64,000 bases of DNA from Chloroflexota bacterium (GCA_021414245.1 JAIOOU010000011.1:123881-187880); one strand, 5' to 3'. Positions 18,032 to 27,796 are shown, numbered from the stretch's first letter. The notes: generated by a model from the sequence alone, not told the origin. Translations and numbers: made by a program.

Positions 18032-19207
18032 ATGCCCATCACCCTGCATTCCGGCCGTGAAAAAAGCCTGCTGCGCCGCCACCCGTGGATCTTCGCCAGC
18101 GCCATCAAACAAATGGATGGAAACCCCGCTTCCGGCGCAAGCGTGGACCTGCTCTCGTCCGATGGGCAGTTCCTTGCCCGGGCCTGCTACTCCCCACACT
18201 CACAGATCCGCGCACGGGTCTGGACCTTTGACGACGAGCCCGTGGACAAAGAGTTCTTTCGCAAGCGCATCCGTGCCGCCCTGCATTTGCGGGGATCGCT
18301 CTTCGACAAAGCAAATTCCCTGCGGCTCATTCACGCCGAATCAGACGGCCTGCCCGGCCTGATCGTGGACCGCTACGGGGATGTGCTGGTGATGCAATCC
18401 CTGACGGCCGGTTCCGAATTCTGGAAGGAGACCCTGGCCGATCTGCTGGTGGAGGAAACAGGCGTTCAAAATATTTATGAACGCTCGGATGCCGATGTGC
18501 GCGAACTGGAAGGCTTGAAACCGATTACCGGAATGCTGCGCGGGAAGATCGATAATTTCCGTCTGACGATCGAAGAATACAACCTGAAATTCTACGTGGA
18601 CATCCAGCACGGCCACAAGACCGGCTTTTATCTGGACCAGCGTCACAACCGGCAGCGCGTCGGTCAATTTGCAAAGGATCGCGATGTGCTGAATTGTTTT
18701 TGCTACACGGGCGGGTTTTCGGTGCACGCCCTGGCGGGCGGCGCGAAATCCGTCCTTTCGGTGGACAGCTCCGCGGACGCCCTCGCGCTTGGAAAGGAAA
18801 ATATCGCGCTCAACAATCTGCCTGCTGAAAAGGCGACCTGGCTGGAAGGCGACGTCTTTCAACTGCTGAGAAAATTCCGCGACGAGAACCGCTCCTTCGA
18901 CATGATCATCCTCGACCCGCCCAAGTTTGCGCCCACCGCCGCGCACGCCGAAAAGGCATCGCGCGCCTACAAGGACATCAACCTGCTGGCCTTCAAGTTA
19001 TTGCGTCAGGGCGGGCTGCTCTTCACCTACTCGTGTTCGGGCGGGGTCGACGCGGCCCTCTTTCAAAAGATCGTGGCCTCGGCCGCGCTGGATGCGGGCG
19101 CGGACGCGGCCATCATCGAGCATTTGTCCCAGGGAGGCGATCACCCGGTCAGCCTGCACTTTCCGGAGGGGGCTTACTTGAAGGGCCTGGTGTGCGTGAA
19201 GGGGTAA
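18032..19207 (+). CDS. rlmI: RlmI-like 23S rRNA m5C methyltransferase
   Basis: RRHPWIF PUA domain, ESDGLPGLIVDRY, GHKTGFYLDQR, VLNCFCYTGGF, ILDPPKFA. Confidence 0.85.
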   Translation: MPITLHSGREKSLLRRHPWIFASAIKQMDGNPASGASVDLLSSDGQFLARACYSPHSQIRARVWTFDDEPVDKEFFRKRIRAALHLRGSLFDKANSLRLIHAESDGLPGLIVDRYGDVLVMQSLTAGSEFWKETLADLLVEETGVQNIYERSDADVRELEGLKPITGMLRGKIDNFRLTIEEYNLKFYVDIQHGHKTGFYLDQRHNRQRVGQFAKDRDVLNCFCYTGGFSVHALAGGAKSVLSVDSSADALALGKENIALNNLPAEKATWLEGDVFQLLRKFRDENRSFDMIILDPPKFAPTAAHAEKASRAYKDINLLAFKLLRQGGLLFTYSCSGGVDAALFQKIVASAALDAGADAAIIEHLSQGGDHPVSLHFPEGAYLKGLVCVKG

Positions 19208-19392
19208 AGTTAGATAGATAAGCAGCTTTCAAAATGGGTTTATACTACGCTAAAACACATTGCAGTTGCTACTGGGAATCAAAATCTATTATTTCCTGTG
19301 TATAGTTTCTTCGCGACAATTAGGATTATCGAAAACATAGGATAATATAACAATTTATGATTGTAAGTCTATAATTTGTCAAGGAGAAAACA

Positions 19393-20643
19393 ATGCAATT
19401 CAATTCCTGGCTGTTAGACAAGAAAATTAATGGATTGAATGTTAGCTTAGATTTATCAATAGAAGAATATTGGGGCTTTGCTCCTGATATTTTGCATGCA
19501 AATGAATACCAAAGGAAAAAGGTTAACGCCAATGGGAAAATATATCAATTATTAGCAAGAGACCTAAAGTCAGGCTGTGTCATACCGCCAATCATTTTAT
19601 CCGTCAGCGGTCAGATAGAACCAGAGATAGCGGGTGTGATAAATAATTGTCTGGAAAACAATATTGTTGATGCGAACAGTGCTGGAAAACTCCAAATTTT
19701 TATTAGGGAAGCCATAGCTGAAAAAGAATTAATAATTTTAGACGGTCTGCAAAGAACATTTACTATACAAGAATGTATAAGAGACTTCACTGAAAATGAA
19801 GAAAAAAATAAATTTCTTAAAATAAAAATTCGAGCCGAAATATATGTAGGTTTGTCTAAGCCAGGTATTTTATATCGAATGATTACGTTAAATACTGGTC
19901 AAACTCCAATGACTTTAAGGCATCAGATTGAAATTTTATATCAAGACTACATTGACAGCGATAGTCTTAAGGACTCTGGAATATACATTGTAAGAGAAGT
20001 TGATAATGAAAGTGTAAAAGTATTGGGATACTATAAGTTTTCTGATGTCGCAGATATGTATTATTCTTTCACGGTGGGATCTCCAAATTCCTATTCGAAA
20101 GAAACAATTTCGACTGTTCTAAGAGAGCATGAATTTCTCGAAGGTTTTGAACCAGAAAATCAGGTCGATCTCTCAACTTTAATTGAAACGTATCATGATT
20201 TTGTTAAAAAATTGAACGAATTAACTAATGGATGGACTTTACCTGAAGAGGATGGTGATATCTATAGTGAAGGTCTTCAGCTAGGTGGACTTCCTTTAGG
20301 GAAGGATATACCTAGCATCGGAAGCCGAGTACAAGTAATGGCAGGTTTTGGAGCAGCATGTAATAAATTAATCGCATTGTCCCAATACGAAAACCTAGGC
20401 GAAGTTAGAGGAGTTATTGGCAATATAACTCTTGGAAATATGGAAGATCCAATGACCATCCTCATTCAGTTCCTTGATGAAATCAGAGCAAATGCAAAAA
20501 AAATTGGCGATTCTCAGAGGGCATATTTTTTCTTGTTCTTCCGTCACCTTTTTAGTGAGCAACACGATAGTTATTTGAATTTGTCTCTTGCAGTCTCGTC
20601 TGCAAAAGATGCCTATGATACTAATTATTCGTTATCAAAGTGA
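19393..20643 (+). CDS. Hypothetical protein with a ParB/Srx-like (DGQHR/DUF262-like) N-terminal domain
   Basis: NEYQR, IPPIIL, IILDGLQRT, LNTGQTPM motifs; AT-rich. Confidence 0.6.
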   Translation: MQFNSWLLDKKINGLNVSLDLSIEEYWGFAPDILHANEYQRKKVNANGKIYQLLARDLKSGCVIPPIILSVSGQIEPEIAGVINNCLENNIVDANSAGKLQIFIREAIAEKELIILDGLQRTFTIQECIRDFTENEEKNKFLKIKIRAEIYVGLSKPGILYRMITLNTGQTPMTLRHQIEILYQDYIDSDSLKDSGIYIVREVDNESVKVLGYYKFSDVADMYYSFTVGSPNSYSKETISTVLREHEFLEGFEPENQVDLSTLIETYHDFVKKLNELTNGWTLPEEDGDIYSEGLQLGGLPLGKDIPSIGSRVQVMAGFGAACNKLIALSQYENLGEVRGVIGNITLGNMEDPMTILIQFLDEIRANAKKIGDSQRAYFFLFFRHLFSEQHDSYLNLSLAVSSAKDAYDTNYSLSK

Positions 20644-20649
20644 AAAGAT

Positions 20650-21852
20650 ATGCCTGAAGCTCTAGAAATAAAACTAGACGATGTGCAGCTTTTCAAGAAG
20701 TTATTTTCTGATAGCTTGCAGGGCTATCAAGACCGTGACGTTAAGTACGAGCGTGACGAGAAGTATGTAATTCGAAATACAGAAATAACAATTGCCATTG
20801 AAGGGTATATTTCCCCATTTATTGACCAGGAATATTCTTACAATAAGTTCACATGTTTTTTGTTTAAGAGTAGCTTTCAAAATCAAAACCAGATTACAAC
20901 AATAGTTTACAAAGCAGATGATGATCAAGAAAAAACATTAGGATATATATACCCAAGAACAGCTCTGTTGCGTGACAATACTATTGAAGAAAAATATAAA
21001 TCACTTTTTGCTTGCGCTGCAATTGAAAATGTTATCTTGAATGGCTTTTCAAACCATCTAGTAATACCTTACAGCAGCCCTGCTCCATCAAGTGCTCAGA
21101 TAGACATAACTTTTGAATCTCTTTTTAATGAAGATGTCTCAATTGCGGTAATCGGAAAAGAGCAGTTACTAGAGTCTAAATTGACAACTGAAGAGCTTGT
21201 AATACAAATATGTAAGCACGGTTATGAGAATATAACTAATCCTTTGGAAATCTCATATGAATTATCCGTGGAATTTCGCAACTCGATAAAAATAAAGAAA
21301 CTTCCTGATGCCGCAAAAATGAATGCCAAAATATTTGTTTCGTTATTGAGAATTTACGCAACTCAAAACGATCCATTATCTAAGTTTATGGTCTTATATC
21401 AAATTATCGAGATTTTTATTGCGGAGATTTTTTCTGCCGAGCTCTCAATATTAATTGAGCAAGAGGAAAATGTGAAAAACGCATGGAAAATGAAGGAGAA
21501 ATTGCAAGACCTAAGTACTGAAATGAAGAGAATAAATCATCTTTTTAACTCTTATACCCAAGGCAAAGATAGTGCAATTTTTTCTTATTGTGAAGATCTG
21601 TGCAGAGCATTTACTGGGAAATACTTACTTGATATAGAAGCTCTTCCTTTAGATCAAAAAGAATTGCCTGTATTAATCTATAAAATAAGAAATCATATCG
21701 TGCATTATCAACCTATTTTGATTGAGCGAGCAGAAAAGGATTTGAATGATATTTGCGAAGCATTCAAACGATGTTGTATTGAATTAATAATCTTTTTTAA
21801 GATTCCCAAAAGGCCGGATTTGCCTCCAGAAGTTATAGCTGAAAATATTTAG
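20650..21852 (+). CDS. Hypothetical protein with a C-terminal HEPN-like domain
   Basis: KFMVLYQIIE helix and IYKIRNHIVH (Rx4H); 6 bp after the previous gene; AT-rich. Confidence 0.6.
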   Translation: MPEALEIKLDDVQLFKKLFSDSLQGYQDRDVKYERDEKYVIRNTEITIAIEGYISPFIDQEYSYNKFTCFLFKSSFQNQNQITTIVYKADDDQEKTLGYIYPRTALLRDNTIEEKYKSLFACAAIENVILNGFSNHLVIPYSSPAPSSAQIDITFESLFNEDVSIAVIGKEQLLESKLTTEELVIQICKHGYENITNPLEISYELSVEFRNSIKIKKLPDAAKMNAKIFVSLLRIYATQNDPLSKFMVLYQIIEIFIAEIFSAELSILIEQEENVKNAWKMKEKLQDLSTEMKRINHLFNSYTQGKDSAIFSYCEDLCRAFTGKYLLDIEALPLDQKELPVLIYKIRNHIVHYQPILIERAEKDLNDICEAFKRCCIELIIFFKIPKRPDLPPEVIAENI

Positions 21853-22002
21853 TGTCGCGATAGAAACATTTGTGAAAAATGTAGGGCAATAGGATATGAA
21901 TCTCGAATCGCTAGGTTCCAGGCCTAGCTTCTGTAGCGTTATAGGGAAACAGTAGTCTTATTTTGGGCACCTTTTTTCTCTTGTAGGTTCATTTGCACAG
22001 CA

Positions 22003-22296
22003 AACAAGTTCGTGATATCGAGTAACAAGTACTAATTTGGAGCTTTTGACTTCCTAATTCCTATAAACAAGAACCTATTTGCGACTAACAAGAACCTGTT
22101 TGCGAGTAATAGCTTCCTGTTTGCGACTAACAAGTACCTATTTGTGAGTAACAAGAACCTGGTTGCGAGTAACAAGTACCTGTTTGCGACAAACTACTTC
22201 CTGTTATCGAGTAACAGGAAGTAGTTTGCGGTTTTGTAGTACCTGATGGCCTGAAAATAGTACTTTTTGGGGAGAAACAGGTACTTGAATCTCGAT
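22003..22296. repeat. Degenerate 21-bp tandem array (about 14 units) containing a 17-bp perfect hairpin
   Basis: Consensus AACAAGWACCTGTTTGCGAST in register from 22003; hairpin caaactacttcctgtta-tcgag-taacaggaagtagtttg at 22190-22228. Confidence 0.85.
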
Positions 22297-22387
22297 TTGA
22301 AAAATTGTAAAAAGGAAAAGTAATTTCTGTTGTCAGGGGAAAGCGTGGCTTTTACCCGTAGTTGCCATTTTAGAAAAGGAGAAAACC

Positions 22388-22741
22388 ATGGCCAGACAGA
22401 AAAAACTTTCCGCAATCCTTGAAAAAGCAGCCCAGCGTCACAGCGCCCTCACGTCCATTGATCCCGCCCTGGACCTGGGCAACGGCTTGACCCTCGCCGC
22501 CTTCAGGGCAGAGATCGAAAATGCCCGGGCCCTGCAGGATGAGTATAACGCCCTGCTCTCGCAAGTGGACGGGACCTACAACCGTTTCCAAGAGGCTGAA
22601 ATCTCCGTACGCGATCTGAGCCAGCGCATGCTTGCAGGCGTGGGTGTACGGTTCGGAATGAACAGTCACGAGTACGAGAAGGCGGGCGGCACCCGCAAGA
22701 GCGAACGCAAACGACCCGCCCGCAGAGCAGTTACAGCATAG
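22388..22741 (+). CDS. Small helical hypothetical protein
   Basis: 117 aa with SD AAGGAG; SIDPALDLGNGLTL and C-terminal EYEKAGGTRKSERKR; followed by a terminator. Confidence 0.8.
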   Translation: MARQKKLSAILEKAAQRHSALTSIDPALDLGNGLTLAAFRAEIENARALQDEYNALLSQVDGTYNRFQEAEISVRDLSQRMLAGVGVRFGMNSHEYEKAGGTRKSERKRPARRAVTA

Positions 22742-22757
22742 TCCACACAACCGAAAG

Positions 22758-22790
22758 GACAGTCTCCCTTACAGGGGAGGCTGTCTTTTT
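22758..22790 (+). terminator. Intrinsic terminator
   Basis: gacagtctccc...gggaggctgtc followed by ttttt. Confidence 0.75.
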
Positions 22791-22816
22791 ATTATCTTCC
22801 TGCAATGGTCTTTGGC

Positions 22817-22845
22817 TTGACTGTGAACATATGTTCTACTATAAT
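22817..22845 (+). promoter_or_regulatory. Sigma70 promoter with a LexA-type SOS box in the spacer
   Basis: TTGACT (22817-22)-17 bp-TATAAT (22840-45); palindrome GAACATATGTTC at 22825-22836 matches GAAC-N4-GTTC. Confidence 0.8.
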
Positions 22846-22855
22846 CTTTGTCAAT

Positions 22856-23275
22856 ATGTCTATCATGCATCGTTTGTTATACCTGATAGGCTTGCGACCC
22901 AACCCCGACCCCCGTACCTTTCAGATCAGTGAAAGTTTCCATCTTGAACTGGTCACACTCGCCAAGCACGCGGGCCGTCCTGAACATGATTTGATCCCTG
23001 AACTCCTGGCCGTTGGCCTTACCCAATATGCTGCTCAAGACCTGCTTCGAATCAAGTGGAAGAGTCTTTCCGCGCGCGAACAGGAGGTCACTGCGTTGAT
23101 CTGTCTTGACTATAATCGTATTCAGATCGCGGATATGTTGGGGGTGTCGCCCGGAACAGTCAAGACCCACACGGAAAGCATCTACAATACATTTGAAGTC
23201 CATACCGCAAAACATCTTGCAAAACTTCTGGAAGGCTGGGATATGGCTGGCTGGTGGGATACACACCCCCAGTAG
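22856..23275 (+). CDS. Transcriptional regulator, putative RHH-like N-terminus plus LuxR-type HTH
   Basis: SLSAREQEVTALIC...IADMLGVSPGTVKTH. The track start at 22805 lies upstream of the promoter, so revised to 22856 (or 22865). Confidence 0.8.
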   Translation: MSIMHRLLYLIGLRPNPDPRTFQISESFHLELVTLAKHAGRPEHDLIPELLAVGLTQYAAQDLLRIKWKSLSAREQEVTALICLDYNRIQIADMLGVSPGTVKTHTESIYNTFEVHTAKHLAKLLEGWDMAGWWDTHPQ

Positions 23276-23394
23276 CGGTTCCCCCCTTGGGCGAACCCCC
23301 CAGATGTGCCTCTGCCAAATCTCTGCCAAACAATCTGCCAAGGAATCAAGCCTGGCAGATTGTTTTTTGTTTAATTCACAGCTATTCTGCAAGG

Positions 23395-24252
23395 ATGAAC
23401 ACATTACTCCCCGCCCCCGCGCTACCCTTCGAGCTTTCCGTCGAATCCAATAAGCTTTTGGTGATCATCACCGAAGGCAGACAAAGAACAGGGTTAACCG
23501 AGCTTATCGCTCGACTGGCCTTTAGAGGGCCTTTTCATATCATTGCAGGCGGTCAATGGGTGCCGGATCAAGACGACCTGCACACTGCCATGCGTCATTT
23601 CACAACAGATGTTGAGAGCACAAGGAGAAATATATCTTTGACGAGGCCCGATACTTATCTGCAATTTTTGGACCTGGTTGCCGAAAGCGATAAAAGAACT
23701 GAACCGTTATTGATATTGGATTTCCTGAATCTGTTCTATGACAAGGATGTTGATATTTCCCGTCGGAAGAGAATGGTGGAGAAGTGCTGCGAACACCTGC
23801 AAAAAATCAAGCTTATAAGGCCCGTAACCATATTTATGCGGGAAGTGCCGCAGGAAGACTACGAACTGTTTCATCCGGTTGTAGTTTCCATTGCAGAGGA
23901 TGCTGTTCACTTGGAAAGAGGTTCTCTGCTTCAAGCGTTGCTGCCGGAGGCTGGCATGGGAAAGAATCTTAAATCTGCAAGGGGGTTGGCGGAAAAACTC
24001 AGGGGGAAAATCCATTTTATGGGCACAATGATCGACCCGGCTGACCGCGCGGTCATCAAACAGTTTGGCGAGTGGGTCATGGACCACAGCGTGGAAATTC
24101 ACAGGAGCACCGAGCTTGCGCCGATGGAAGCCGCCTTAACCATGATCGTACTTGAGGAGCATAGAAGGATCACGAAACTTTCCAATGAGCTGCACAACTT
24201 CATGGATGAGATGGACAAAAGACTTGATGAACTTATGAAAGTGAGTAAATGA
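23395..24252 (+). CDS. Degenerate RecA/RadA-like protein fused in frame to a small helical protein of the type found beside PolB2
   Basis: RecA-like strand order with LLILDFLNLFYD (Walker-B-like) and no intact Walker A; internal GGAGG + ATG 23956 opens MGKNLKS...PMEAALTMIVLEEH. Confidence 0.6.
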   Translation: MNTLLPAPALPFELSVESNKLLVIITEGRQRTGLTELIARLAFRGPFHIIAGGQWVPDQDDLHTAMRHFTTDVESTRRNISLTRPDTYLQFLDLVAESDKRTEPLLILDFLNLFYDKDVDISRRKRMVEKCCEHLQKIKLIRPVTIFMREVPQEDYELFHPVVVSIAEDAVHLERGSLLQALLPEAGMGKNLKSARGLAEKLRGKIHFMGTMIDPADRAVIKQFGEWVMDHSVEIHRSTELAPMEAALTMIVLEEHRRITKLSNELHNFMDEMDKRLDELMKVSK

Positions 24253-26573
24253 ATGAAGTTGTAGGCTGGCTTTTTGATCTATATGAGCATCCCGAAAAAG
24301 GACTTGTTCTTTGGATCGTTGGAGAGGACGGCAAAGCATATTCGTTTTATCAGGAGTTTTCCGCTGCTTTTTGTGCGGGAGGCGCTCCTCAGCAGTTACA
24401 TGACCTGGCTAAATTCTTAAGGTCAAAATATTCCACCAACCTGCTAAAATTTACGCGCCATCAGGCGGAGGATTTGTTTGATGGCACACAGGATGTTATG
24501 GGGATGCGTGTCTCCAGCAGTGCTTTATTGCCGCAGGTATTTCAGGACGCAAGCAGAGAATTCCCGGACCTAACCTATTCCAATGTTGATATACCCATAA
24601 CCTTGCGTTATGCGGCAAAATACCACGTGTTTATGATGGCCCGTTGTCGTGTGATTGCTGAGCCAAATGGCAAACTGGTTAACATACAGGCGCTCGACAA
24701 GCCCGAAGACCTGGACCCAAAACTGCCGAAACTAAAGGTTTTGCAGCTCAGGCCGGATGTCAATCCAAATCGAAGGAAACCACAGCAGCTACTGATCAAA
24801 TACAACGATGTTGGTATTCGTGTTCCTTTGTCGCGCCCAAAAGAAATAATAGACTTACTCAATAATATTTTTTCCACATTTGATCCGGATGTTCTCGAAA
24901 CTCATTTTGGGGACACATGGTTTTTTTCCTATCTGGAGAAGGCTTCAAAGCAAACCGGGATATCCATTAATCCCAATCGGGACCACACGCGACAGCCGCG
25001 AAAAGTAAAAGAAATCAGCTTTTACAACTATGGCCGCGCTCATTATCGCAGCCCGCAAACACACTTATATGGACGCTGGCATGTGGACAAAGAAAATTGT
25101 ATGACCTACAAACAATACGGTTTGCAGGGGGCCGTTGAGCAAACCCGCTGGTCCAGCCTGCCCTTGCAGGGGGTTGCAAGGCGTTCTCCGGGCGCATCCA
25201 TAGCCGCGATGCAGGACCTGGCAGCCTTGCGGCGCAATGTTCTCGTTCCCTATCAACGCCAGAAAGGCGAAGTTTCCAAGACCTACGAAGAGCTTGTTGA
25301 AGCGGATTCGGGAGGTTTTGTTAAGCGCCCGAAACTTGGGGTTTATGCCAATGTAGCCGTGTTGGATTTTGCCTCATTAATGGCGTCCATTATTATCCGT
25401 TGGAATGTATCTCCGGAAACCGTTGTCAGTATCGATGCGGAAGGGGAGGGTTTTGAAATACCAGACCTGGGCGTCAAAATACTCTCGAAGCCCGGGTTAA
25501 TCCCTGAAACCCTCCGGCCAATGCGCGACAAGCGCGTTACCCTCAAGAGGTGGTTAAAGACTTTAGCCAAGGATGATCCACGTTATATTTACGCCCGTCG
25601 AATGTATGAGCCTGTCGTAGACGGGCTTAAATGGCTTACTGTGGTGTGCTATGGGCGGTTGGGGTTTGCCAATTCAAGGTTTGGCCGTGTCAATGCGCAT
25701 GAGGTTGTCTCCTATCTTGCGCGCAAGGTCATTGTGGAGACAATGGGCATCGCCGAAGCACAAGGATACGAATGGCTGCATGTCTATGTCGATAGCATTT
25801 TCGTGACCCGCAAGGATGCCACGCAAGCAGATTTTCAAGCATTGGCAGAACAGATCGAGCTGCAAACAGGACTGCCAATGGATCTTGAAAATGTATATTC
25901 CTGGTTTGCCTTCCCTGCTTCAAGAGAAAGTGAAGATCGTTCGGTGGCAAATCGATTCTTTGGACGCGCACCCGATGGAAAGCATAAGATACGAGGCTTG
26001 GCGCTTCGCCGCAGGGATACAACGGAGTTTGTTTCAAGAATACAGAGGGGCGTTTTCAAAATTCTGGCAAAGGAAGAGAACGTCGATAAGTTGCCGGAAC
26101 TTTTCCCTGAAATATTGGAATATGTAGGAAAAAGACTCACCTGCCTTGTCAATAAGAAAGTACCCGTAAGGCAATTGATTATTACTCAAAGGATGAGTCG
26201 TGAACTGAATGAATATAGCTCAATGTCCCCGATCGCTGTTGCCGCACGTCAGCTGAATGCGCATGGCAGGACTGTAAAAATGGGCAACGATATAAGGTTT
26301 ATTCATGTTCGCAATGGGCATGTTGTACCTGCGGATTTGCCCATTGAGGTTGACCCTCGAAATATTGATGTTCGAAAATACAAAGAATTGGCTCTGCTCG
26401 GTGTGCACGATTTGCTGCAGCCATTGGGTGTAACAGAACGAACTTTGCGAGATTGGTTATTTAAGAAGGCAGGTTATATCACTCCCCCGGGCAAACTTTT
26501 TTCAACTGACCGTACTCGATTGGATTTGCCTTTGTTTAATAGCGTGAAACGTTTACATCTCGGCCTGCAGTAA
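24249..26573 (+). CDS. Family B DNA polymerase, PolB2 (Dpo2)-like
   Basis: Motif A VLDFASLMASII...NVSPET, motif B LKWLTVVCYGRLG, motif C HVYVDSIFV, KIRGLALRRRD; eroded exonuclease region DPDVLETHFGD. Confidence 0.85.
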   Translation: MNEVVGWLFDLYEHPEKGLVLWIVGEDGKAYSFYQEFSAAFCAGGAPQQLHDLAKFLRSKYSTNLLKFTRHQAEDLFDGTQDVMGMRVSSSALLPQVFQDASREFPDLTYSNVDIPITLRYAAKYHVFMMARCRVIAEPNGKLVNIQALDKPEDLDPKLPKLKVLQLRPDVNPNRRKPQQLLIKYNDVGIRVPLSRPKEIIDLLNNIFSTFDPDVLETHFGDTWFFSYLEKASKQTGISINPNRDHTRQPRKVKEISFYNYGRAHYRSPQTHLYGRWHVDKENCMTYKQYGLQGAVEQTRWSSLPLQGVARRSPGASIAAMQDLAALRRNVLVPYQRQKGEVSKTYEELVEADSGGFVKRPKLGVYANVAVLDFASLMASIIIRWNVSPETVVSIDAEGEGFEIPDLGVKILSKPGLIPETLRPMRDKRVTLKRWLKTLAKDDPRYIYARRMYEPVVDGLKWLTVVCYGRLGFANSRFGRVNAHEVVSYLARKVIVETMGIAEAQGYEWLHVYVDSIFVTRKDATQADFQALAEQIELQTGLPMDLENVYSWFAFPASRESEDRSVANRFFGRAPDGKHKIRGLALRRRDTTEFVSRIQRGVFKILAKEENVDKLPELFPEILEYVGKRLTCLVNKKVPVRQLIITQRMSRELNEYSSMSPIAVAARQLNAHGRTVKMGNDIRFIHVRNGHVVPADLPIEVDPRNIDVRKYKELALLGVHDLLQPLGVTERTLRDWLFKKAGYITPPGKLFSTDRTRLDLPLFNSVKRLHLGLQ

Positions 26574-26601
26574 AATATATTAGAACTTTTCAGCAAATGC
26601 C

Positions 26602-26703
26602 GTGTCACTCCCCCGAAAACCACCGGGGCGATGTGAGGGAGCGCTCTTTGCGACCGAGGAGCCTCGCAAATTGGAGCCCGAGATCCTTCGCTCAGCATGA
26701 CAC
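26602..26703. repeat. REP-like intergenic palindromic element
   Basis: gtgtca...tgacac ends; contains gagatccttcgctcagcatgacac, shared with 28841-28869 and 34398-34422. Confidence 0.55.
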
Positions 26704-26716
26704 ATGAGACTGCAAA

Positions 26717-26764
26717 ATACAGATACCGCCCTGCAAATTTCATTTTGCAGGGCGGTATCTGTAT
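26717..26764. terminator. Hairpin/terminator between convergent genes
   Basis: atacagataccgccctgcaaa / tttgcagggcggtatctgtat, 21-bp stem. Confidence 0.75.
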
Positions 26765-26788
26765 AACTTAGAATTTATAAAAAGCCCC

Positions 26789-27796
26789 CTACGCACTCCC
26801 CAAGCCCGGCAGGCCGCCAGCGGACCTGGCATGCTTCACGGCCCTCAGGATGGCCTGCGCCAGGACTTCGGCGGCGAAGGCGCCAATCGTTGAGACATCG
26901 GCTTTCTTTGTACCCGTGGAAAGCGCGAAGATCACATCCCCATCCAGCATTGTGTGCGCGGGCCGGACCGTCCGCGCGATTCCGTCCTGCGCCATCTGAG
27001 CCACCTTGGTGGCCTGGGCCTTGGTTAATTTGGCATTGGTGGCCACCGCGCCGATGACCGTATTGCCCCGGCTCGCAAGCCCAAGCACGCCCCGGCCGAG
27101 CGGGGACTTCATCATCGCCAGCGTATCCGCGAAGGGTTCCTTTTTCCCGATCCGCAGCGGACCGGCCTTGCCGGAACGCAGGCCCGCCAGGATGGCGCCT
27201 GTCGCCGGGTCGATCACATCCCCAAAGGCGTTGACCGCCACAATGGCGCCCACGATCACGCCGCCGCCGATGTCCATGCTGGCGGTGCCCAGGCCGGACT
27301 TCATGGCGAGTCCCATGCCGAACATCTTGCCGACCGAAGCGCCTGTGCCCGCGCCGACGTTTCCCTCCGCGGGCGGACTGGACGCAGAAAGATCGCTTGC
27401 CGCGGCGGCTGCTTTGGCTCCCATGGCGGGATCAGGCCGAACGTCCGCGCGACCGAGGCCCAGGTCATATAAAATGGCCGCAGGCACGATCGGCACTTTG
27501 GCGGCGCCGGTATTAAATCCAATCCTTTGTTCCTCAAGATACCCCATCACGCCGGAGGCGGCATCCAGCCCAAAGGCCGAACCGCCCGCCAGCACGATCG
27601 CATGCACTTTCTGAACGAGATTAATCGGGTTCAACAGATCGGTCTCGCGCGTGCCGGGCGCGCCGCCGCGCACATCCACACCGGCCACCGCGCCCTTGCG
27701 GCACAATATGACCGTACAGCCCGTCAGGGCTTCCTCGTTTTGCGCGTGTCCCACTTCAATCCCGCGCACATCGGTGATGGCATTCTTTAGTTTCAT
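26789..27796 (-). CDS. P1/DmpA-like (S58) aminopeptidase
   Basis: DVRGGAPGTRET, GGSAFGL, EGNVGAGTG, GNTVIG autoprocessing site, DGDVIFAL. Confidence 0.92.
   Translation of the reverse strand: MKLKNAITDVRGIEVGHAQNEEALTGCTVILCRKGAVAGVDVRGGAPGTRETDLLNPINLVQKVHAIVLAGGSAFGLDAASGVMGYLEEQRIGFNTGAAKVPIVPAAILYDLGLGRADVRPDPAMGAKAAAAASDLSASSPPAEGNVGAGTGASVGKMFGMGLAMKSGLGTASMDIGGGVIVGAIVAVNAFGDVIDPATGAILAGLRSGKAGPLRIGKKEPFADTLAMMKSPLGRGVLGLASRGNTVIGAVATNAKLTKAQATKVAQMAQDGIARTVRPAHTMLDGDVIFALSTGTKKADVSTIGAFAAEVLAQAILRAVKHARSAGGLPGLGSA

Follow-up and report, generated by a model that had tools for sequence, protein, structure and literature searches.

A PolB2 mutasome cassette of Anaerolineales with a LexA-type operator on its regulator gene and proposed two-tier SOS control

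The window analysed here, a stretch of 64,000 nucleotides (nt) from a Chloroflexota bacterium (GCA_021414245.1 JAIOOU010000011.1:123881-187880), carries on its plus strand, between positions 22817 and 26573, a cassette built around a family B DNA polymerase of the PolB2 type. The first gene (22856-23275) encodes a GerE-type regulator of 139 amino acids (aa). The second (23395-24252) encodes a 285-aa fusion protein in which a RadA-like domain predicted to be inactive, iRadA (residues ~1-177), is joined by the linker LLQALLPEAG to a small helical domain, PPB2 (residues 188-285). The third (24249-26573) encodes the 774-aa polymerase, and its ATG overlaps the TGA of the fusion gene as ATGA. The regulator gene is preceded by a promoter, P1 (22817-22845), with a LexA-type operator in its spacer, and a gap of 119 bp between the regulator gene and iRadA holds direct repeats, a hairpin and a second, candidate promoter, P2. 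An earlier note, made from the sequence alone, had listed a promoter with a LexA-type box, a helix-turn-helix (HTH) regulator, a RadA-like domain, a small helical domain and a family B polymerase; all are present at the coordinates given here, with the RadA-like and helical domains in a single open reading frame (ORF), the one that overlaps the polymerase gene.

We compared this cassette with 52 Anaerolineales loci encoding relatives of the polymerase, of which 41 have enough upstream sequence for the promoter region to be studied. The gene order GerE - iRadA - PPB2 - PolB2 is kept in about 45 loci, and in nearly every locus with upstream sequence the cassette opens with the regulator gene. 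We regard it as highly probable, on the sequence comparisons reported below, that we are dealing with a PolB2 mutasome cassette whose regulator gene carries a LexA-type operator. The fuller statement, in which the locus represents the bacterial PolB2 mutasome cassette in Anaerolineales and is under two-tier SOS control, we consider probable as a whole.

The polymerase matches the family B profile PF00136 (E=1e-27). Its best NCBIfam models are those of archaeal-type PolB (E=1e-84, versus 2e-22 for E. coli Pol II), and its PDB matches likewise favour archaeal PolB (3e-35) over Pol II (1e-7). Motif A reads LDFASLMAS and motif B KWLTVVCYG, and the PolC motif reads HVYVD (HxxxD) where other PolBs read YxDTD. 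In an alignment to Thermococcus PolB, both metal-binding aspartates are kept (D373 in motif A, D515 in PolC), and the acidic residues of the exonuclease motifs are gone, Exo I FDIET having become LRPDV and Exo II NFD having become TWF; a Pfam scan of the polymerase returned no DNA_pol_B_exo1. Among 20 homologues of 53-69% identity, H511, Y513, V514, D515 and S516 are invariant, as are K428 and R429 of the loop motif MRDKR, whose D427 is nearly so; motif B shows little or no variation at K461, Y468 and G469. These are the features of the published PolB2 signature, namely HxxxD with an invariant His, a D(K/R) motif and missing Exo motifs (Feng et al., PMC8764526), and Anaerolineae homologues belong to the published PolB2 set (PMC11791011). 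In the Atlas, the neighbours of the polymerase are bacterial and archaeal clusters with weak exo domains, and Pol II is distant. The assignment to PolB2 made in the earlier note, as opposed to E. coli Pol II or a phage PolB, is supported by the HxxxD motif, the DK loop, the lost Exo motifs and the iRadA and PPB2 partners. E. coli Pol II, too, is a bacterial polymerase of family B fold, under LexA control as predicted here, but it is a single-subunit, proofreading-proficient enzyme with a DNApolII_N domain. We rejected an E. coli-type Pol II identity, as neither an intact exonuclease nor DNApolII_N was found and the matches to Pol II (PDB and NCBIfam, above) are weak.

Is such a divergent polymerase still catalytic? 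Substitutions affect the first Asp of DTD, the steric-gate Tyr of motif A (now Met) and, in motif B, the N and the S, which might suggest a dead enzyme acting only as a scaffold. Yet the family shows no change in either metal-ligand aspartate, in the Lys, Tyr and Gly of motif B, in the HxxxD His or in the DK motif, and Sulfolobus Dpo2, which bears the same signature, HxxxD included, is a robust, proofreading-less extender of mismatches and lesions (PMC8764526). We find a scaffold-only role scarcely credible. With Dpo2 of S. islandicus and S. solfataricus (PMC7390963, PMC8764526), the likeness lies in the HxxxD PolC motif and the lost Exo motifs, and would extend to damage-linked expression, which is predicted here; by analogy, an extender role in translesion synthesis is probable for the present polymerase too. 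Dpo2 differs in being archaeal, about 150 aa shorter and regulated via Orc1-2 rather than LexA, and activity is on record for Dpo2 but, in the literature searched, for no bacterial member.

As a single sequence, the 285-aa fusion protein has no match in Pfam, NCBIfam or PDB, and its kinship with RadA is visible only by family profile and fold search. The family profile matches P. furiosus RadA in PDB (E=1e-7), and an AlphaFold model (predicted local distance difference test, pLDDT, 83) matches the ATPase cores of DMC1, RAD51 and RadA in Foldseek (E~1e-7); the PPB2 region of the model is helical. An exhaustive search matched residues ~1-175 to hundreds of standalone proteins of ~180 aa, and residues 188-281 to standalone proteins of 91-104 aa (P0130, 53% identity); in relatives, such standalone PPB2-like proteins sit between iRadA and PolB2. 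The Walker A motif reads GRQRTGLT and has therefore lost its Lys. Profiles and model together identify the N-terminal domain as an inactivated RadA-fold iRadA, predicted to be ATPase-dead, and the C-terminal domain as a PPB2/arCOG07300-like helical protein, which are the partners that the earlier note had expected beside the polymerase.

The exhaustive search found one other fused homologue. The same fusion occurs in the two closest relatives, whose polymerases are 77% and 69% identical to ours (288 aa at locus L075 and 281 aa at locus L074, respectively), which argues for a lineage trait rather than an assembly error. The start Met of PPB2 is kept within the fusion: a GGAGG (23946-23950, plus strand), five bases upstream of an ATG (23956-23958), stands at the exact start of the PPB2 domain, and the standalone P0130 starts MGRDL. 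Internal initiation at this site may yield free PPB2, and may in this way supply extra PPB2 copies for the published model with one PolB2, one iRadA and three PPB2. The fusion also bears on clamp binding. Standalone iRadA homologues end in QPALF, QGLLF or QLSFF; this C-terminal clamp motif (QxxLF) is missing from the fusion, whose linker holds only a degenerate LQALLP. The C-terminus of PolB2 reads RLDLPLF (family consensus TRLALPLF), a candidate beta-clamp motif. Such a division, with one motif in PolB2 and a degenerate one in the fusion, fits the published observation that the clamp motif occurs in iRadA or in PolB2, and rarely in both.

How much of this was known? The earlier note was aware of no characterisation of such a system in bacteria, a claim that the in silico literature contradicts. 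Makarova, Krupovic and Koonin (2014) linked PolB2 to inactivated RadA and arCOG07300 and showed that this trio also occurs in several bacteria, in some of which the operon includes lexA; a role in DNA damage was their inference (PMC4104785). Timinskas, Timinskas and Venclovas (2025) analysed 1823 operons, Chloroflexota/Anaerolineae included, and suggested that one transfer from archaea brought the genes to bacteria. They introduced the names iRadA and PPB2, described fusions of the two, an enrichment of lexA and motifs for the beta-clamp, and modelled a heteropentameric mutasome (predicted PolB2:iRadA:PPB2 1:1:3), which they likened to Pol V (PMC11791011). Among the Anaerolineae, their dataset lists Bellilinea, Ornatilinea, Longilinea, Pelolinea and Brevefilum. 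GerE appears as a frequent neighbour (131 cases) in their Supplementary Table S1, and their text does not discuss it (PMC11791011). The central inference of the note, a PolB2 module wired into the LexA regulon as a functional analogue of the Imu mutasome, is thus already published as a prediction. In the literature searched, we found no experimental characterisation of a bacterial PolB2 mutasome member, and the accessions or motif strings of close homologues were not found in the examined part of the Timinskas supplement.

Our cassette resembles the published bacterial PolB2 mutasome operons of the G2 clade in having the same three families in the only order known in bacteria, an iRadA-PPB2 fusion, an exonuclease-dead PolB with YVD for DTD, a candidate clamp motif in one partner and a link to SOS (PMC11791011). 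It differs in the nature of that link, since lexA genes nearby, not operators, are described there; the layout found here, with an operator on the GerE gene, a terminator, direct repeats and a second leaderless promoter, is not in that study. The lexA - iRadA - arCOG07300 - PolB2 locus of Leptospirillum ferriphilum (PMC4104785) is likewise a LexA-tied bacterial PolB2 cassette read as a damage-response complex. There, however, lexA lies within the predicted operon, whereas here we find a LexA-type operator and a LuxR-type regulator instead, with lexA elsewhere. The E. coli Pol V mutasome (UmuD'2C-RecA-ATP) and ImuA-ImuB-DnaE2 offer a functional analogy, as LexA-controlled, multi-subunit, error-prone polymerases with a RecA-fold subunit and a beta-clamp contact. 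Their catalytic subunits belong to the Y and C families rather than to family B, and our cassette has no UmuD-like self-cleaving subunit. Membership in either family was rejected, as the cassette holds only a family B polymerase and neither ImuB nor DnaE2. The literature searched contained no operator on a conserved GerE-type gene, no arrangement of terminator, repeats and second leaderless promoter, no internal PPB2 start in a fusion and no island location for the cassette.

P1, a promoter of the sigma-70 type, consists of a -35 element TTGACT (22817-22822), a 17-nt spacer and a -10 element TATAAT (22840-22845), and with 11 of 12 consensus matches it is the best promoter-like site between 22400 and 27000. 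Its spacer contains GAACATATGTTC (22825-22836), with a perfect palindrome core. The SOS box of B. subtilis is CGAACN4GTTCG, and LexA boxes in Bacillus and Staphylococcus read GAAC-N4-GTTC (PMC9578287). The layout TTGAC-N3/4-GAACnnnnGTTC-TAnTATAAT is found before the orthologous regulator gene in 36 of the 41 loci (30 with perfect cores, six with one mismatch); the N4 and the operator flanks are free to vary. The conserved placement of the operator within the promoter spacer excludes chance. GAAC-N4-GTTC is reportedly the LexA box of Dehalococcoides as well. The source genome (3.87 Mb, 98% complete) contains a single lexA, on contig C3 away from the cassette, with GAACGCCTGTTC ~90 bp upstream, and a single recA, which has a comparably placed site with one mismatch ahead of a TATA element. 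The LexA-type box listed in the earlier note, a Cheo-type operator, is therefore both phylogenetically conserved and matched by the same core upstream of the genome's own lexA. The start codon of the regulator lies 10 nt after the -10 of P1. The distance from the end of the -10 to this ATG is 7-11 nt in most loci, the window included, and hence the P1 mRNA is predicted to be leaderless or nearly so.

Several observations weigh on the other side. The bare 8-base core GAAC-N4-GTTC is not enriched in the genome (52 copies versus 58 expected), so that the argument rests on conservation at orthologous promoters; the upstream region of dinB has no box; and several of the best extended palindromes in the genome precede genes outside the classical SOS set, among them genes for an FAD oxidoreductase, a phytoene/squalene synthase, a glyoxalase/bleomycin-resistance protein, an AAA_16 protein and several unknowns. 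Extended palindromes of this kind, TAGAACAnnTGTTCTA, lie between or before non-classical-SOS genes in the source genome (L002, L003, L004, L006, L007, L008 and L009). Either the LexA regulon is unusual in this organism or another factor shares the palindrome motif. The wiring of the cassette also varies between lineages. At locus L055 (PolB 39% identical), a second perfect box, GAACATCTGTTC, stands at the iRadA promoter itself (L055:2626-2725). At L075 (L075:690-800), two boxes precede the regulator gene, of which one lies in a divergent promoter, and there is a leader of ~140 nt.

The regulator carries a C-terminal HTH of the NarL/FixJ/GerE type (residues ~66-123; Pfam GerE, E=3e-10), and a profile of 40 orthologues matches the effector domains of StyR, VraR and NarL in PDB with E-values down to 1.5e-16. 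It has no receiver domain, and its N-terminal ~60 aa are helical in a model that is of low confidence there. A ribbon-helix-helix reading of residues 1-65 (window 22856-23050; TFQISESFHLELVTLAKHAGRPEHDLIPELLAVGL), suggested by eye as strand, helix, helix, finds no support in Pfam, and AlphaFold confidence is low there. If such a module were real, the regulator would carry two DNA-binding modules.

The gap between the regulator gene and iRadA contains a dense set of elements, all on the plus strand. Three direct repeats (23310-23342; CTCTGCCAAA, CTCTGCCAAA and ATCTGCCAAG) follow one another at a spacing of 11-12 nt, and only one of 200 shuffles was as good. The third repeat is the 5' arm of a terminator-like hairpin (23331-23368; CAATCTGCCA / TGGCAGATTG) ending in T6 (23363-23368), with a minimum free energy of -23.4 kcal/mol for 23300-23372 (z -2.97). 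P2 (23360-23388) comprises a weak -35 TTGTTT (23360-23365), a 17-nt spacer and a -10 TATTCT (23383-23388) located 6 nt before the ATG of iRadA. In the 40 loci compared for this region, a TAnnnT hexamer stands 6-7 nt before this ATG in every case, with no Shine-Dalgarno sequence, so that the P2 mRNA would be leaderless. The hairpin with an adjoining T-run is found in 22 of the 40, and a LexA box at P2 only at L055. Neither Rfam nor tRNA searches found anything in the regulatory region or at the island edges.

Repeats with a period of 10-13 nt and at least three copies, for which at most two of 200 shuffles were as good (p <= 0.01), are present in nine of the 40 loci; at least two copies are present in 35, where about a third would be expected from shuffles. 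The repeat sequence is lineage-specific (CTGCCAA, ATCACTC, TCCATC, GTATCCCC, GCTACC, CATCCGTAC, GGTTAAC, CTAGCC and CTCCCAA), and each type is paired with a distinct recognition-helix sequence in the regulator. At L075, the closest relative, CTGACAA replaces CTGCCAA in all three repeats, a concerted C to A change accompanied by a compensating change in the 3' arm of the hairpin. We regard the direct repeats as candidate binding sites for the regulator.

The evidence for this second tier has its counterweights. Shared ancestry confounds the association of repeat types with helix types, and tandem repeats may homogenise by slippage with no function required. Of the RNA runs listed, a very small poly-A metatranscriptome from the source sample was the only candidate, and this stretch is missing from it. 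Binding of the regulator to the repeats is itself something that we infer. The -35 of P2 is poor, and P2 was missed by a consensus promoter scan. Finally, 18 of the 40 loci lack a clear terminator, and in these read-through from P1 may be the main route to the downstream genes.

These last points bear directly on a simpler alternative, a LexA-controlled four-gene operon in which P1 is the sole promoter, the hairpin a leaky attenuator that would yield much regulator and little polymerase, and TAnnnT no promoter at all. The co-oriented genes, the short gaps between them and the 18 loci with no clear terminator all agree with it, as do other bacterial PolB2 operons with lexA or a LexA box directly before iRadA (PMC4104785; L055). 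We nevertheless consider it unlikely. The hairpin with its T6 is strong (-17 to -23 kcal/mol), the -10-like hexamer fixed 6-7 nt from an ATG with no Shine-Dalgarno sequence in all 40 loci is hard to explain without a promoter, and a dedicated regulator gene is conserved with no other obvious target. Of the LexA wiring drawn in the earlier note, the LexA-type box at the promoter therefore stands, and the single co-transcribed operon is not supported: the box is on the promoter of the regulator, a terminator-like hairpin with a T-run follows the regulator gene, and iRadA-PPB2/PolB2 has a conserved -10 of its own.

Could the regulator act other than as a DNA-bound activator of P2? It might be a repressor or autoregulator, providing feedback or shut-off, or an antiterminator acting on nascent RNA. 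In several unrelated lineages the terminator's 5' arm includes the last repeat, a geometry typical of RNA-binding antiterminators such as BglG/SacY and HutP. This must be set against the nature of the protein, as NarL/GerE effector domains, which the regulator matches in PDB, bind DNA, and we know of none that binds RNA. The centres of the repeats, moreover, fall some 58, 70 and 81 nt upstream of the predicted P2 start, normal positions for an activator. Roles of this kind thus appear quite improbable to us.

A paralogous module is found elsewhere in the same genome, at contig C7:205682 (L005:1990-3005). It begins with a LexA-box promoter, TTGACA-TAGAACACATGTTCTA-TACACT, followed by a gene for a 137-aa GerE paralogue (38% identical in the HTH), two hairpins, the second with a T-run, and a TATTGT 6 nt before the ATG of the next gene. 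The latter encodes a 150-aa protein with a TIR_2 domain (E=1.7e-25), which suggests an SOS-linked TIR effector. The box on the regulator gene, the downstream hairpin and repeats, the second, leaderless promoter and this module together lead us to a cascade from LexA through the regulator to PolB2, which we judge to be evenly balanced between right and wrong. More tentatively still, Anaerolineae may possess a dedicated module in which LexA represses only a receiver-less GerE regulator made from a leaderless mRNA, and this regulator recognises repeats that are lineage-specific, in phase with the DNA helix and overlap the terminator, and switches on the leaderless P2. With the same module before a TIR gene, this would be a reusable LexA to GerE to effector relay, delaying costly SOS outputs or setting a threshold for them and travelling with them on islands; we see this as possible but somewhat doubtful.

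Under two-tier control, the sequence of events would be as follows. LexA would repress P1; upon DNA damage, RecA-stimulated cleavage of LexA would free P1, and the regulator would be made from a leaderless mRNA. Transcription from P1 would mostly end at the hairpin and T-run. The regulator would then bind the direct repeats of 11-nt period and activate the weak P2, giving a leaderless iRadA-PPB2/PolB2 mRNA whose two genes would be translationally coupled through the ATGA. The products would assemble as predicted for PolB2 mutasomes, from PolB2, iRadA and a PPB2 trimer, with extra PPB2 perhaps coming from the internal GGAGG-ATG, and the complex would dock on the beta-clamp via the C-terminal LxLPLF of PolB2. 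Like Sulfolobus Dpo2, it would extend mismatched or lesion-paired primer ends, resulting in error-prone damage tolerance. The extra tier of control would delay the expression of a mutagenic enzyme or set a threshold for it.

The cassette lies in a strain-specific island of 7.6 kb (19206-26800) that also holds a Dazbog defence pair. Two genomes of the same genus (G118 and G078) lack the island at this site: its two flanks are contiguous or almost contiguous there (665 bp apart in G118). The GC content is 0.34-0.50 in the island versus 0.58-0.60 in the flanks. We found no tRNA, integrase or flanking repeats at the island edges. G118 carries a different PolB2 cassette elsewhere, 39% identical, and PolB2 is present in only seven of 151 genomes evenly sampled from the class. 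Given this patchy distribution and the island location, the cassette is probably mobile within Anaerolineae. As for other damage-tolerance polymerases, the genome contains DinB, a single Y-family gene located elsewhere, no UmuC, and no ImuB beside a second DnaE-like gene; PolB2 and DinB thus appear, from gene content, to constitute its translesion repertoire.

Such surroundings raise the question of whether the cassette is a translesion mutasome at all, or serves replication restart, defence or island maintenance. The strain-specific island and its Dazbog pair, the rarity of PolB2 in the class, a TIR gene after PolB2 at L074 and the TIR gene behind the paralogous regulator module could all be read this way, and Makarova et al. 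also considered replication-related roles (PMC4104785). PADLOC, for its part, does not call the cassette a defence system: no model matches iRadA-PPB2, and the only match of PolB2 is to a homing-endonuclease model, within its generic polymerase region. A LexA-type operator fits a damage response, and the archaeal Dpo2 genetics and biochemistry point to damage-induced mutagenesis and lesion extension (PMC7390963, PMC8764526). We therefore hold another function to be very unlikely and retain the mutasome reading.

Some features of the neighbourhood remain to be mentioned. At its 5' end, the cassette is delimited by the intrinsic terminator of the upstream gene (22753-22790, plus strand), a 17-bp stem followed by a T-run. 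At the other end, a perfect 21-nt inverted repeat (26717-26764), located between PolB2 and a convergent peptidase S58 gene, probably terminates transcription in both directions and would mark where the cassette ends on its 3' side. The Dazbog pair (19393-21852, GC ~0.35) was called by PADLOC (DzbA E=1e-109, DzbB E=2e-37), and Pfam gives only a weak GmrSD_N match. It is followed at 21982-22296 by about 7-14 head-to-tail units of 21 bp (CCTGTTTGCGAGTAACAAGAA-like), a region that includes a perfect 17-bp hairpin (22190-22228), and then by an ORF of 117 aa (22388-22741), located between the tandem array and the cassette, with a strong terminator and no family match. The Shine-Dalgarno sequence of this ORF, AAGGAGAAAACCATG, is the same string as that found before the DzbA gene at 19381. 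The 3' side of the cassette differs in the closest relatives: at L074 (L074:6470-6916; PolB2 69% identical) a gene for a 148-aa TIR-domain protein directly follows PolB2 on the same strand, L075 has a gene for a 163-aa protein in this position, and the window has none there.

Bacterial PolB2 mutasomes have so far been predicted only in silico. The present locus, together with some 40 relatives, provides a concrete regulatory map, from the operator and the leaderless regulator gene to the terminator, the repeats and the second promoter. The natural iRadA-PPB2 fusion, with its kept internal start, bears on the predicted 1:1:3 stoichiometry of the complex. For the Chloroflexota themselves, the cassette would be a damage-inducible mutagenesis module that appears to move horizontally among them.

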